55,755 nucleotides of DNA, taken from Elusimicrobiota bacterium (GTDB taxonomy: Bacteria; Elusimicrobiota; Elusimicrobia; UBA1565; UBA9628). Both the position numbers and the translations under genes were made by a program. The DNA lies in assembly GCA_016212825.1 (NCBI GenBank), contig JACRDS010000149.1:1-55755 (forward strand), written 5' to 3'. This document shows positions 34,123 to 53,163 of this stretch, piece by piece. Below the pieces are notes generated by a model, which saw nothing but the letters and a program-made list of their open reading frames with translations, was not told the DNA's origin and searched no databases. Position 1 is the stretch's first letter. Each line of letters opens with the position of its first letter.

Positions 34123-34147
34123 TACGATTCAGCCGCCAAAAAGTTCC
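34123..34147 (-). promoter_or_regulatory. ECF sigma-type promoter upstream of the tRNA
   Basis: GGAAC-N16-CGTA (GGAACTTTT...CGTA), 13 nt before the tRNA 5' end. Confidence 0.7.
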
Positions 34148-34203
34148 CCGCTCCCTTCCGTCTTGCCTAGACGCTCCCGAGCCAAAACCCTATAATGTCC
34201 CCG

Positions 34204-36636
34204 ATGGCCAAGCGCTATTTCTGCATCCACGGACACTTCTACCAGCCGCCTCGGGAGAACCCCTGGACCGAGACCGTCGAGCGCCAGCCCTCGGCCCGGC
34301 CCGAGCACGACTGGAACCGTCGCATCGCGCGCGAGTGCTACATCCCCAACAGCCAGGCGCGCCTCATGGACGCGCACAACCTCATCAGCGAGCTGGTCAA
34401 CAACTACCAGTACCTCAGCTTCGACTTCGGCCCCACCTTGCTCGCCTGGTTCGAGAAGGCCTACCCCCACGACTACCGCCGCGTCCTCGAAGCCGACAAG
34501 ATGAGCGTCGCGCGCCTTCCCGGCCACGGCAATGCCATGGCCCAGGCCTACAACCATATGATCCTGCCCCTGGCCAAGCCGCGCGACCTGCGCACCCAGA
34601 TCCTCTGGGGCCTGGCCGACTTCCGCCACCGTTTCGGCCGCGAGTCCGAGGCCATGTGGATCCCGGAGACCGCGTGCAACGACGCGGTCCTCGCGGCTCT
34701 GGCCGAGCACGGCCTCAAGTACGCGGTGCTGGCTCCCACCCAGGCGCGCCGCGTGCGCAAGACCGGCGCCGAGGCCTGGACCGACGTGTCCGCGGGCGGC
34801 CTGGACCCCCGCCGGCCCTACCTCTGGTCCGCACCTGGCTCCGAGGGCAAGAAGTCTTTGGCCCTCTTTTTCTACGACGCCGGCCTCTCCCACGCCGTGG
34901 CCTTCGAGAAGGTCATGACCAACGCCAAGGGCTGGGCGGAGCGCATCGCGGGCGCCTTCGATCCGCACGCGGCCGAGGACCAACTGGTCCACATCAGCAC
35001 GGACGGCGAGTCCTACGGCCACCATGAGAAGTTCGGGGATATGGGACTGGCGCACCTGCTCGCCCAGGAACTGCCCAAGCGCGGCATCGAGGTGGTCAAC
35101 TACGCCGCCTACCTCGCCGGGCACGCCCCGGCGTGGGAGGCCGAGGTCAAGCCCGGCGAGGGCGGCCTGGGCACCTCCTGGAGCTGCAGCCACGGCGTGT
35201 CGCGCTGGTCCGATGCCTGCGGCTGCGGCGGCGAGGGCAAGAGCCTGGCCTGGCGCCGGCCCATGCGCGAGGCCCTGGACTGGCTGCGCGACCATCTGGC
35301 CCTGACCTTCGAGCGCGAGGGCGGCAAGGTCCTGCGCGACCCCTGGGCCGCGCGCGACGCCTACATCGCGGTCATCCTGGACCGTTCTGACGAGAGCGTC
35401 GGCCGGTTCATGGCGGAGCAGCTCAAGGCTGGGGACTCGCCCGACAACCGCGTCAAGGCCCTGCGCCTGCTGGAGATGCAGCGCCATGCCATGCTCATGT
35501 ACACCAGCTGCGGCTGGTTCTTCTCGGACATCTCCGGCATCGAGGCCGTGCAGAACCTGCAGTACGCGGCCCGAGCCGCGGAGCTGGCGCACCTGGTCGC
35601 CGGGGTGGAGCTGGAGAAGGGGCTGGCCGCGCGCTTGAAGTCCGCGCCCAGCAACTACGCCGAGGTCGGCAGTGGCGAGGGGGCCTACCGCAAGCTGGCC
35701 CTGGCCGGCCGCATGGACGAGGACCGCGCCGCGGCGCACCACGCGGTGGCGGCCCTGTTCTGCGACGGCAGGCAGGACTGGCCCATGGAGCCCGCGCAGG
35801 CGGAGTTCACCGGCCTGGCCCGCCTTCAGACCGACGGCATCCGCCTGGCCTCCGGCCGCGTGGCCCTGCGCGACGCGGTCACCGGGGCGCGCTGGGAGCG
35901 GACCTTCCTAGCCGCGGCCCTGCCCGATTACACGGTCACGGCCTGGGTCTCGGCGGAGGAGCCGGGCAGCGGCGGCCTGGAGTCGCTGGCCGAGAGGGTC
36001 AAGGCCGTGCGCGAGGGCCAGCCGCTCGACCTGCAGGCCCTGGCCGGCGCCTTGGCCAAGGGCCGCCGCTTCGGCTTCGAGGACCTTCTGGCCGACGAGC
36101 GCGAGCGCATCCTGCGCTGCCTGGTGGAGAGGCGGCGCCAGGTCTGGGAAGACTCCCCCCTGCTCAACATGGACGAGTGCCTGGGCCTGGCCGAGCAGCA
36201 CTTCAAGCTCGGCCTGGAGATGCCGCCCGGACTGCGCGGCCAGACCGAGGCGGCCCTGGACGCCTGGCTGCTGCGCCGGGCGCGGGGCTTCCGCGAGCGG
36301 CCTGACGAGGACCTCGCGGACCTTTCCGCCACCAGGGCCCGGGCCCGGGCCGCCGGGCTCTCCGGCCCCTCGGCGGCCGCGGAGGAGGAGTGGGAGGCCT
36401 GCGCGGTCTGGGTCCTGGACTCGCTGGAGAAGGACTTTTCCGCGGTGTGGCTGCGGCGTCTGGCGGCCCTGGCCGGGATGGCTCCGGCCGCCAACCTCAC
36501 GCGCTGGCGCTACCGGGCCCAGAACCGGTTCTTCGAGATGATCAAGAACCTGCCTCCGGAGGGCGACGAGAAGGTCCGCCTGGTGGGAGAGATCGACGAG
36601 GCCGCGCGCCTGCTGGAGATCTCCGCCGACGCTTAA
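34204..36636 (+). CDS. Glycoside hydrolase family 57 / DUF3536 protein
   Basis: IHGHFYQPPRENPW, WIPETA, TDGESYGHH, SWSCSHGV and MYTSCGWFF motifs; ATG 34204 lies 7 nt after TATAAT. Confidence 0.92.
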   Translation: MAKRYFCIHGHFYQPPRENPWTETVERQPSARPEHDWNRRIARECYIPNSQARLMDAHNLISELVNNYQYLSFDFGPTLLAWFEKAYPHDYRRVLEADKMSVARLPGHGNAMAQAYNHMILPLAKPRDLRTQILWGLADFRHRFGRESEAMWIPETACNDAVLAALAEHGLKYAVLAPTQARRVRKTGAEAWTDVSAGGLDPRRPYLWSAPGSEGKKSLALFFYDAGLSHAVAFEKVMTNAKGWAERIAGAFDPHAAEDQLVHISTDGESYGHHEKFGDMGLAHLLAQELPKRGIEVVNYAAYLAGHAPAWEAEVKPGEGGLGTSWSCSHGVSRWSDACGCGGEGKSLAWRRPMREALDWLRDHLALTFEREGGKVLRDPWAARDAYIAVILDRSDESVGRFMAEQLKAGDSPDNRVKALRLLEMQRHAMLMYTSCGWFFSDISGIEAVQNLQYAARAAELAHLVAGVELEKGLAARLKSAPSNYAEVGSGEGAYRKLALAGRMDEDRAAAHHAVAALFCDGRQDWPMEPAQAEFTGLARLQTDGIRLASGRVALRDAVTGARWERTFLAAALPDYTVTAWVSAEEPGSGGLESLAERVKAVREGQPLDLQALAGALAKGRRFGFEDLLADERERILRCLVERRRQVWEDSPLLNMDECLGLAEQHFKLGLEMPPGLRGQTEAALDAWLLRRARGFRERPDEDLADLSATRARARAAGLSGPSAAAEEEWEACAVWVLDSLEKDFSAVWLRRLAALAGMAPAANLTRWRYRAQNRFFEMIKNLPPEGDEKVRLVGEIDEAARLLEISADA

Positions 36637-36639
36637 TCC

Positions 36640-36686
36640 GGGGACACCATACTGAATTCGCTGGTCGAATTAAGTAAGGCGTCCCC
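36640..36686. repeat. REP-like palindrome between convergent genes
   Basis: GGGGACACCATACTGAATTCG-CTGGT-CGAATTAAGTAAGGCGTCCCC, 18 of 21 positions paired. Confidence 0.8.
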
Positions 36687-36702
36687 CTATTATGAGTGGC
36701 AC

Positions 36703-51878: not shown

Positions 51879-52112
51879 CGCGGCCAAAGTCAGAGGCGGG
51901 TGGCCCAGGAGTCCGCGCAGGGACCAGTCGCGCTCGGGAAGGGGCTGCGGCCTGTCCTGCGCCCCGGAGACGAAGCAGAAGGTCCGGCGGGCACCGGCGC
52001 CGTGCTTGCGCCGCAGCGGCTCCAGATGGTCGCCCGAATCCACCACGCGCAGGCTGCGGTCGAGGACGACCCAGGTGTCTTGGTAGGCGGAGTCCAGGTG
52101 GAATATGGGCAT
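51870..52112 (-). CDS. Small hypothetical protein (DUF5678-like)
   Basis: YQDTWVVL....VVDSGD.L pattern. Confidence 0.5.
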   Translation of the reverse strand: MPIFHLDSAYQDTWVVLDRSLRVVDSGDHLEPLRRKHGAGARRTFCFVSGAQDRPQPLPERDWSLRGLLGHPPLTLAALG

Positions 52113-52159
52113 GGGGATATTCCACCAAAGCCGTGTTTCAGCGTTGTTAAGAGGAAGGC

Positions 52160-53056
52160 CTAGACGAACATCGCGATGAAGGCGTTGAGCCGGCGGTAGA
52201 GCGAGACCAACAGGCCGTGATATTCGACCGGCTTCGGGTAGACTTCGACCTGGCGCACCAGGTCCGCGGCCGCGACCGGGATGGTGAAGAAGAAGCTGGC
52301 GCCCGCGCCCTTCCAGCTCTCGGCCCAGATGCGGCCGCCGTGCAGCTCCACCATGGCCCGCGCCAGGGTCAGGCCCAGGCCGGTGCCGTCGGTCTTCTTC
52401 TGCGCGCTGGCCGCCGACTGCATGAACATGTCGAAGACCTTCTCGATGTCGGCCGCCGGGATGCCGCAGCCCATGTCCTTGACCCGGAAGACCAGCGTCC
52501 CCGCGTGCTCGAAGCGGCCAGCCTTCACCGAGACCGTGACGGTCCCGCGCGTGGGGCTGAACTTGACGGCGTTGGAGACGAGGTTGGTCAGGACCTGGAC
52601 CACGCGGCGCGCCTCGGCCGAGACCCGGGGCAGGCCTTCCTCGACCTCGCGGACGAGCTTGACGCCCTTGGACAGGGCCAGGGCCTGCATGGCGTCGACG
52701 GCGTCGTTGACAAGGGAGCGCGCCTCGCAGGGCTCGGTCGTGACGGTCATCTTCCCCGCCACGATCTTAGAGTAGTCCATGATGTCGTTGATGAGCCCCT
52801 CGAGGCGCGAGGTGTTCTTGATCGCCAAGGACAGCATCTGCTTCTCGTCGCCTTCCAGCTTGCGGGCGACCTGCTCCTGGAGTATCTCCAGGCCCAGCCG
52901 GATCGCAGTGACCGGGGCGCGCAGCTCATGGGTGAGGTAGGAGGCCTGGATCCGCTCGGGAGCCTTCACGGGGACCGGCGCCGGAGCCGGCGCCGGCTGT
53001 TCAGGCTGGCGGATCACCAGGTCTTCCCACTGCGCGGCTGGGGTCTTGGCGCTCAC
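52160..53056 (-). CDS. Histidine kinase with no sensor domain (HisKA + HATPase)
   Basis: THELRAP, NLVSNAVKF, DMGCGI and GTGLGL boxes; only ~38 aa precede the H box. Confidence 0.9.
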   Translation of the reverse strand: MSAKTPAAQWEDLVIRQPEQPAPAPAPVPVKAPERIQASYLTHELRAPVTAIRLGLEILQEQVARKLEGDEKQMLSLAIKNTSRLEGLINDIMDYSKIVAGKMTVTTEPCEARSLVNDAVDAMQALALSKGVKLVREVEEGLPRVSAEARRVVQVLTNLVSNAVKFSPTRGTVTVSVKAGRFEHAGTLVFRVKDMGCGIPAADIEKVFDMFMQSAASAQKKTDGTGLGLTLARAMVELHGGRIWAESWKGAGASFFFTIPVAAADLVRQVEVYPKPVEYHGLLVSLYRRLNAFIAMFV

Positions 53057-53138
53057 GCCATGAGTATGGGTCCGGGCTGTTACAGAGCGATTTCGGGGCT
53101 GTTAACGAATTGTTACAATCGGTCTGGCTGGGAGGAGT

Positions 53139-53163
53139 GGAACTTTTCCGCTCCTCGTCCGTA
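53139..53163 (+). promoter_or_regulatory. ECF sigma autoregulatory promoter
   Basis: GGAAC-N16-CGTA directly upstream of the ECF sigma gene. Confidence 0.75.

Follow-up and report, generated by a model that had tools for sequence, protein, structure and literature searches.

The closest described counterparts of the locus analysed here are the autoregulated promoters of extracytoplasmic function (ECF) sigma factors, as in the RpoE-RseA-RseB system, the tRNA-ProX genes of Streptomyces and Kitasatospora, type I toxin-antitoxin pairs, and tRNAs engineered in the laboratory as substrates of GatCAB. The locus comprises an extra tRNA gene, a small RNA (sRNA) gene downstream of it and the operon of an ECF sigma factor, all within a stretch of 55,755 nt (the window) that is one entire contig (JACRDS010000149.1) of the genome of an uncultured groundwater bacterium of the Elusimicrobiota (genome G000; 3.56 Mb, 69% G+C, completeness 86%).

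The sigma operon resembles RpoE-RseA-RseB and other autoregulated ECF systems in having a -35 element GGAAC and a -10 element CGTA, separated by 16–17 nt, ahead of the operon itself, in the overlap of the anti-sigma gene with the sigma stop codon, and in a third gene that is RseB/MucB-like. It differs in its anti-sigma factor, which is of the zf-HC2 type, and in a regulon of recA, comEC, comFC, transposases, nucleases and tRNAs. The tRNA-ProX genes (PMC11415595) are alike in placing the anticodon of one amino acid on the tRNA body of another, in their frequent lack of U33, and in being accessory and patchily distributed. They have a dedicated synthetase (ProRSx), whereas the tRNA in the window has no adjacent protein partner and is predicted to be altered by the housekeeping GatCAB; the available portion of the same review mentions neither sigma control nor an anti-tRNA RNA. 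The sRNA follows the logic of type I toxin-antitoxin systems, being short, adjacent, apparently constitutive, and capable of 20–30 nt of pairing that covaries locus by locus, but its target is a tRNA rather than a toxin mRNA, and it is encoded downstream on the same strand. The engineered GatCAB substrates, as described in the accessible text of Bailly et al. 2006 (PMC1635274), share with the tRNAs reported here a GUC anticodon, U1:A72 and the absence of the extra D-loop base; they can be aspartylated, and their amidation comes close to that of tRNA-Asn. Those are laboratory constructs, while these are natural genes, conserved in 11 genomes, that come with a promoter and an inhibitor of their own, and the copy in the window has C1·A72. 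No module of this kind was found in the open-access literature searched on tRNA genes in ECF regulons, on GatCAB-based or Asn/Asp mistranslating tRNAs and on tRNA-pairing sRNAs, and no sRNA dedicated to pairing with a tRNA was found there either.

The best overall explanation, put forward with belief and doubt about equal, is that a promoter motif shared by the tRNA gene and the sigma operon is read by the ECF sigma factor encoded at 53172, and that the tRNA is part of a conserved three-part module. Such a module would join the ECF promoter and tRNA unit to an sRNA of about 60 nt that is driven by sigma-70 and complementary to the same tRNA.

The shared motif was proposed in an earlier note on this DNA, which placed the pattern GGAAC-N16-CGTA at 34147-34123(-), 13 nt ahead of the tRNA, and at 53139-53163(+), ahead of the sigma operon. 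Both positions are exact, with a 16-nt spacer at each (GGAACTTTTTGGCGGCTGAATCGTA and GGAACTTTTCCGCTCCTCGTCCGTA, respectively), and 13 nt separate the end of the motif from position 1 of the tRNA. The window contains two matches to the pattern compared with 0.10 expected, and one of 100 shuffles gave two. The genome-wide scan that the note had suggested was run and divided the claim: the bare pattern is not enriched (56 matches in G000 compared with 80 for the reversed pattern), while a longer motif that includes both window sites is. This extended motif (GGAACT, a T-rich run, YCGTA, an A/T-rich run, and GG at positions 11–12 after CGTA) occurs at 28 sites in G000 and once in the reversed control, and by this comparison the two window sites are members of a distinct promoter class. 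A version of the pattern with a 17-nt spacer has no match in G000, although relatives do use 17 nt. At 13 of the 28 sites (a count made on the site listing) an ATG stands at the 9th–10th nt after CGTA, which places the start point of transcription about 9 nt after CGTA. For the promoter of the tRNA (34123-34147(-); -35 GGAAC, 16-nt spacer, -10 CGTA), this predicts a start near 34114 and a leader of about 5 nt. The sigma start codon at 53172 is one of the 13, lying 9 nt past the CGTA of its promoter (53139-53163(+)), so that the mRNA of the sigma operon is probably leaderless. The spacing suggests that the mRNAs made by this sigma factor may for the most part be leaderless, among them the transcripts of recA, comEC and the sigma gene itself.

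Behind the plus-strand site, the note had recognised a three-gene operon for a sigma factor, an anti-sigma factor and RseB, and Pfam searches agree. The first gene (53172-53729(+)) encodes an ECF sigma factor with Sigma70_r2, r4_2 and Sigma70_ECF matches. The second (53726-54223(+)) encodes an anti-sigma factor with a zf-HC2 match (29 bits, cut-off 22.2) and one hydrophobic segment, and the third (54216-55202(+)) a MucB/RseB-like protein, the match to PF03888 being weak (28.3 bits, cut-off 22.3) and confined to the N-terminal domain. An open reading frame listed at 53737-54219 was discarded as a spurious, arginine-rich translation in the wrong frame within the anti-sigma region. Orthologues of the sigma factor (40–66% identity) were present in all 40 relatives searched, and GGAAC-N16/17-CGTA stands directly ahead of the sigma start in all 12 orthologous loci fetched (G000 included), which makes the motif most likely the sigma factor's own promoter. 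Autoregulation through a GGAAC/CGT promoter, assumed in the note from the usual behaviour of ECF sigma factors, is borne out by this comparison and appears to be conserved. Within G000, the motif lies directly upstream of only one of the 14 sigma-70-family genes that score above the Pfam cut-off, the sigma gene at 53172. Transcription from the other sites of the class would depend on the same sigma factor.

A repeated element, TGTTACAG ... TTGTTACAAT, is found just ahead of the sigma promoter at 53079-53118(+), and also at several orthologous loci (L016, L017, L020-L024). It may be the binding site of another regulator. A histidine kinase gene is divergently transcribed beside it (53056-52160).

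The gene behind the minus-strand site is called tRNA-Asp(GTC) at 34110-34035(-) by ARAGORN, and matches Rfam RF00005 at 34109-34038 with 57.8 bits (gathering score 29). It specifies a tRNA (34038-34109(-)) with anticodon GUC, C1·A72 and G73, in which the D-loop measures 7 nt and CCA is not encoded. The canonical tRNA-Asp of the lineage (C134, L243) has G1:C72 and an 11-nt D-loop, and the window tRNA matches neither feature. Three of the 40 ARAGORN calls in G000 have the motif 13–15 nt upstream: the window Asp(GUC), an Asp(GUC) on C181 and a Glu(CUC) on C159. G000 has canonical genes for Asp (C134) and Glu (C143, C184) besides these, with TATAAT-type promoters; the canonical tRNAs of G000 and of G002, a relative in the same genus that is 97% complete, use TATAAT or TAGAAT. 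In G002 the full Rfam list of 47 tRNAs covers all amino acids, and the promoter is present on only one of them, a U1:A72 Asp(GUC) gene.

Searches of related genomes showed the link between promoter and tRNA to be conserved. A pattern that required the promoter gave 10 tRNA and four non-tRNA matches in 41 genomes. A second pattern, which was based on the acceptor stem and ignored the promoter, was run on 101 genomes of the order and gave 12 tRNA-shaped matches in 10 genomes together with five chance matches; 11 of the 12 tRNAs have the anticodon GTC and one has CTC, with none of CTG or GTT. All 12 carry the promoter (11 with CGTA, one with CGTC), in agreement with the note's claim that the tRNA and the sigma operon share a motif, and the tRNA very probably belongs to the sigma regulon.

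Altogether, the family numbers 18 genes, spread over 11 genomes that belong to a single order of the Elusimicrobiota, and every gene lies behind this promoter. The promoter spacer is 16 nt in 11 genes and 17 nt in seven, and position 1 follows at 13–15 nt in 17 of the 18. The first pair is U1:A72 in all but the window copy (17/18), G73 is invariant (18/18), CCA is never encoded (0/18), and the D-loop is always of 6–8 nt, that of the canonical tRNA-Asn of G002 being 7 nt. The anticodons are GTC (14 genes), CTC (three) and GCC (one), and position 33 is U in 10 genes, C in seven and A in one. T-loops and the GG of the D-loop are canonical across the family; anticodon stems and D-arms vary freely. 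Anticodons for Asp or Glu (GUC or CUC) are thus combined with a U1:A72/G73 body whose acceptor stem is elsewhere that of tRNA-Gln and tRNA-Asn. Outside the order, a sample of 401 genomes from the phylum shows this stem in the tRNA-Gln(UUG) of one sister family (4/4 genomes), and in other phyla it is found in tRNA-Gln and tRNA-Asn, among the matches listed. A scan of public contigs with the 3′ half of the tRNA gave at least 120 loci, mostly tRNA-Gln of Thermoleophilia, and says little about distribution. Among the matches listed in that scan are isolated tRNA-Gln 3′ halves, near or apart from the full gene (L067, L074, L076, L090, L109, L119, L142 and L145; Thermoleophilia, Gaiellales), a trace typically left by elements that integrate into tRNA genes.

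The 5′ leader of the tRNAs (GGAC/GGTC type) pairs with the 3′ trailer (GTCC/GACC type), lengthening the acceptor stem by up to five pairs (18 loci); 17 of the 18 have a pair between position -1 and G73. The mean duplex energy of leader and trailer is -4.5 kcal/mol, compared with -0.44 kcal/mol in 46 canonical tRNAs. Crossed pairs reach -3.8 kcal/mol, indicating that the pairing reflects conserved sequence and not covariation. It may affect RNase P or 3′ processing. A formylation or initiator role was considered as a common explanation for the family and rejected. The initiator tRNA of the genus (G000 C98:13584-13660; G002 L244) has U1:A72 and the acceptor stem of the Asp-type extra tRNAs, but A73; the stem of the Glu-type members differs, and the three consecutive G:C pairs of the anticodon stem that are a hallmark of initiator tRNAs are not seen.

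The note had further supposed that an sRNA antisense to the tRNA is made from a housekeeping promoter. In the window, a sigma-70-type promoter (33985-34013(-)) is found downstream of the tRNA and on the same strand, with a -35 element TTGAAA (34013-34008), a 17-nt spacer, a -10 element TACCAT (33990-33985) and TG before the -10. It precedes a predicted sRNA of about 60 nt (33916-33979(-)), in which 33978-33969 is complementary to the anticodon arm of the tRNA, and 33961-33953 to acceptor positions 5–7, positions 8–9 and the 5′ side of the D-stem. A terminator hairpin (33945-33926) and a U-rich tail (33925-33916) follow. The window sRNA is predicted to fold as a free 5′ part plus the terminator (z = -3.7).

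Comparison of 17 family loci, in which the sRNA unit lies downstream of the tRNA on the same strand, supports this part of the note. A TTGAnn-N16/17-TAnnnT promoter was found by regular expression in 12 loci, the -10 ending 4–6 nt ahead of the complementary stretch, and by eye TG precedes the -10 in 14. In 15 of the 17 loci, a complement of 10–16 nt (at most one mismatch) to the anticodon arm of the locus's own tRNA, anticodon included, lies upstream of the terminator and covaries with the tRNA. The second complementary stretch corresponds to acceptor positions 5–7, positions 8–9 and the 5′ side of the D-arm; overall, the sRNA of the module matches positions ~2-16 and ~26-38 of its own tRNA. 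The terminator, GGCCCCGG-GAAA-CCGGGGCC with a U-rich tail, is present in all 17 loci, with compensatory changes in two, and the hairpin occurs exactly three times in G000, once behind each of the three tRNAs.

The pairing is specific in its predicted energies. Duplexes of tRNA positions 1–41 with the sRNA average -42.0 kcal/mol for own partners and -26.9 kcal/mol for the sRNAs of other members, and the G002 sRNA reaches -45.6 kcal/mol with its own tRNA against -34.1 kcal/mol for the best of 46 canonical G002 tRNAs. The gain in cofolding over separate folds is -19.5 kcal/mol on average for own pairs, -6.7 kcal/mol for crossed pairs, and 0 to -6.1 kcal/mol with the canonical Asp and Glu tRNAs of G000. 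The own sRNA ranks first of the 17 in 10 loci and among the top three in 14. That tRNA and sRNA form a pair can be held with considerable confidence. The sRNA tracks anticodon stems that differ freely from locus to locus, and for this reason the tRNA is taken to be the target of the sRNA and not the reverse.

In four of the 17 loci (G002, G093, G027 and G040_C165), a hairpin with a U-rich tail lies between the tRNA and the sRNA promoter, and its loop bears a second short complement to the anticodon arm. A promoter on the opposite strand, inside the tRNA, was also tried as the source of an antisense RNA and rejected; a lax TTGAC-N16-18-TAnnnT pattern fits two of the 18 members as a by-product of the anticodon and D loops, and the sRNA lies downstream on the same strand.

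Pfam searches of the genes behind 25 of the 28 extended-motif sites indicate what else the sigma factor may control. Genes of DNA metabolism and uptake are RecA (C102:22988-24097), ComEC (C126:5249-7132) and a ComFC-like protein (C47:7787-8524) made up of a double zinc ribbon and a phosphoribosyltransferase domain. Mobile-element genes are three IS200-type Y1 transposases and one IS91-type Y2 transposase. Two DUF222/HNH nucleases, a Gp49/HigB-like protein, a HicA-like protein, an XRE regulator, an aspartyl protease, an S41/PDZ peptidase, the sigma factor itself and several proteins without a family complete the set. The motif lies within 400 nt upstream of recA in 20 of 30 fetched loci, and in all eight within the genus. 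The envelope-stress role that the note had drawn from RpoE-RseA-RseB does not fit this content. An RseA-type anti-sigma factor was not found, 53726-54223 matching zf-HC2 only, and a set of envelope biogenesis or repair genes was likewise not found at the 25 sites, where the S41/PDZ peptidase is the sole envelope-looking product. By content, the regulon looks like a DNA-damage or competence programme joined by mobile elements, and presumably recalls the sigma regulons that govern competence in Firmicutes.

G000 also has two promoters of this class arranged divergently, in a unit that is present twice (C3:2606-2673 and C35:42736-42802). One arm leads to an IS91-type Y2 transposase and the other to a short transcript that starts with a GTAGGGCC...GGCCCTAC hairpin. 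The unit probably represents a mobile element equipped with a small RNA.

The sequences of the extra tRNAs point to how they might be charged. Asp-type members carry GUC, G73, G10 and G2:C71, which we take to be the identity set of AspRS. Glu-type members carry U1:A72, G2:C71, G3:C70 and G73, presumably the acceptor identity read by GlnRS, and because GlnRS is present in G000 a direct route to Gln is possible for them. With one exception, the anticodons of the family are those of the two amino acids acted on by GatCAB. According to the accessible text of Bailly et al. 2006 (PMC1635274), bacterial GatCAB recognises U1-A72, and is blocked on tRNA-Asp by G1-C72 and an extra D-loop base; tRNA-Asp given U1-A72 and deprived of U20A is amidated almost like tRNA-Asn, and tRNA-Asn given the Asp anticodon (C36) is amidated merely two-fold less. 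The available part of Nakamura et al. 2010 (PMC2811023) concurs for tRNA-Gln and tRNA-Glu. G000 carries a gatB gene, as do all 10 other genomes holding family tRNAs, although in G014 (C5:148331-149769) it is split over two adjacent frames, by a frameshift or an assembly error, and in G039 it spans two contig ends. Since U1:A72 and the short D-loop are the published determinants of GatCAB, and gatB is present, the insertion of Asn at Asp codons and of Gln at Glu codons is the best reading of these tRNAs, with the amidation and mistranslation step judged to fall just short of an even chance.

The following sequence of events can be proposed. At rest, the constitutive sRNA would pair with the 5′ half of the tRNA transcript and block its folding, processing or charging. 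Once the sigma factor is freed from the zf-HC2 anti-sigma factor, tRNA synthesis would exceed that of the sRNA, and release of the tRNA could show the threshold behaviour that the note had predicted. The free tRNA would be aspartylated by AspRS through GUC, G73, G10 and G2:C71. Because it looks like tRNA-Asn to GatCAB, its Asp would be amidated to Asn, which would then be inserted at GAC/GAU codons; the CUC members would likewise carry Glu converted to Gln to GAG. That an inhibitor is dedicated to the tRNA implies a cost to the cell of the tRNA in its free form, in keeping with mistranslation. Seen as a whole, the module looks like a tightly guarded way to alter the reading of the genetic code under stress. 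In its fullest form the proposal is tentative, with the balance somewhat on the side of doubt: the sigma factor of recA and of DNA-uptake genes would induce tRNAs that GatCAB turns into Asn-tRNA(GUC) and Gln-tRNA(CUC), Asp and Glu codons would be partly read as amides throughout the proteome, and each tRNA would be held in check by its own sRNA, the first RNA antidote for a tRNA.

Several observations weigh against this scheme. The family is patchy, being found in 11 of the 101 genomes of the order and two of the nine of the genus. The sRNA fits poorly at three loci; that of G032 suits another arm type, and those of G040_C165 and G039_b are weak. The search for a hairpin and U-rich tail separating the tRNA from the sRNA gave nothing at the three G000 loci, so that sigma-driven transcripts may carry the sRNA in cis and in equal amounts, which complicates a simple titration model. 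Acceptance by GatCAB is less readily expected of the window copy, with C1·A72 instead of U1:A72, and the logic of GatCAB does not account for the GCC (Gly) member, which has a T-stem mismatch and may for that reason be decaying. G000 also encodes AsnRS, GlnRS and an AsnB-like gene, which bears on the normal role of its GatCAB, and gatB may be universal in the order, making its co-occurrence with the tRNAs a weak test.

The alternative that survives best, although unlikely, is that the tRNAs do not decode at all. They would supply Asp or Glu (or Asn or Gln) to a reaction outside the ribosome, or serve as decoys or replacements in the face of co-induced tRNA-cutting toxins, with the sRNA only setting their level. 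The replacement of U33 in eight of the 18 genes points to a weaker constraint from ribosomal decoding, while the anticodon read by AspRS or GluRS is kept, and HicA-like and Gp49/HigB-like toxin genes, as well as HNH nucleases, share the regulon. However, non-U33 is also seen in tRNAs shown to mistranslate, the available text of the review (PMC11415595) noting natural examples with A33 or G33. The canonical T-loops and D-loop GG argue against loss of decoding, and a decoy role leaves the retention of U1:A72 in both Asp- and Glu-type members unexplained. No transferase or other conserved gene adjoins the tRNAs; all-against-all BLAST of the flanks gave only the synteny between G000 and G002 and one family without a Pfam match.

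It is quite improbable that the genes encode additional Asp and Glu isoacceptors of the ordinary kind, which would simply increase supply when the sigma factor is active, their U1:A72 being a relic of an origin from a Gln or Asn tRNA gene. Their AspRS and GluRS identity elements do appear intact, and the distribution of the same acceptor stem, in the tRNA-Gln of the sister family and in the tRNA-Gln and tRNA-Asn matches listed from other phyla, would suit such an origin. Yet canonical genes exist for Asp(GUC) and Glu(CUC, UUC), so that no codon depends on the extra ones; U1:A72 and G73 have been retained while the anticodon stems and D-arms vary; and a harmless tRNA would need no dedicated, co-varying inhibitor.

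A little less likely still is a selfish, addiction-type mobile module in which the tRNA is the toxin and the sRNA its antidote; it would have borrowed the sigma promoter as other mobile genes have, and would have no adaptive role for the host. Its molecular mechanism would be identical to that proposed above, the difference lying only in the beneficiary. The patchy distribution would be explained, as would the position of the window copy, at a synteny break not shared by the eight other genomes of the genus, the use of the same promoter by transposases and toxin genes, and the several copies per genome with distinct pairings. On the other hand, G000 and G002 share the C181 copy in a syntenic position, between two glycosyltransferase genes, and the flanks that were fetched contain no adjoining mobility gene. 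A chance or non-functional look-alike of the motif, with the tRNA transcribed by the housekeeping sigma factor, for example from a TAATAT that overlaps the -10 in two G000 copies, is very improbable in spite of the lack of enrichment of the bare pattern, given that the extended motif precedes all 18 family genes at a nearly fixed distance, that TAATAT is not conserved and has no TTGACA-like -35 at 17 nt upstream in a promoter scan, and that canonical tRNAs use other -10 elements.

If the proposed recoding by GatCAB is true, the locus would represent a natural, programmed and reversible Asp to Asn and Glu to Gln recoding, made by housekeeping enzymes from a tRNA gene alone, and a case of regulated mistranslation tied to a defined stress regulon with recA and competence genes. 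It would also make a tRNA the specific target of a dedicated small RNA, and the compactness of the module (promoter, tRNA, promoter, sRNA, terminator) would make the question of adaptive mistranslation experimentally approachable. Even if amidation fails, a conserved, apparently sigma-controlled tRNA with a co-varying anti-tRNA RNA would be new, and this much is well supported by comparison. An ECF sigma factor that appears to govern genes of recombination and DNA uptake (recA, comEC, comFC-like) is worth a study of its own.

Next to the tRNA, a GH57/DUF3536 gene has a sigma-70-type promoter (TAGACG, 17 nt, TATAAT) at 34168-34205(+). Its mRNA is probably leaderless, the ATG at 34205 standing about 8 nt after the -10 and later than the listed start of the open reading frame at 34195.

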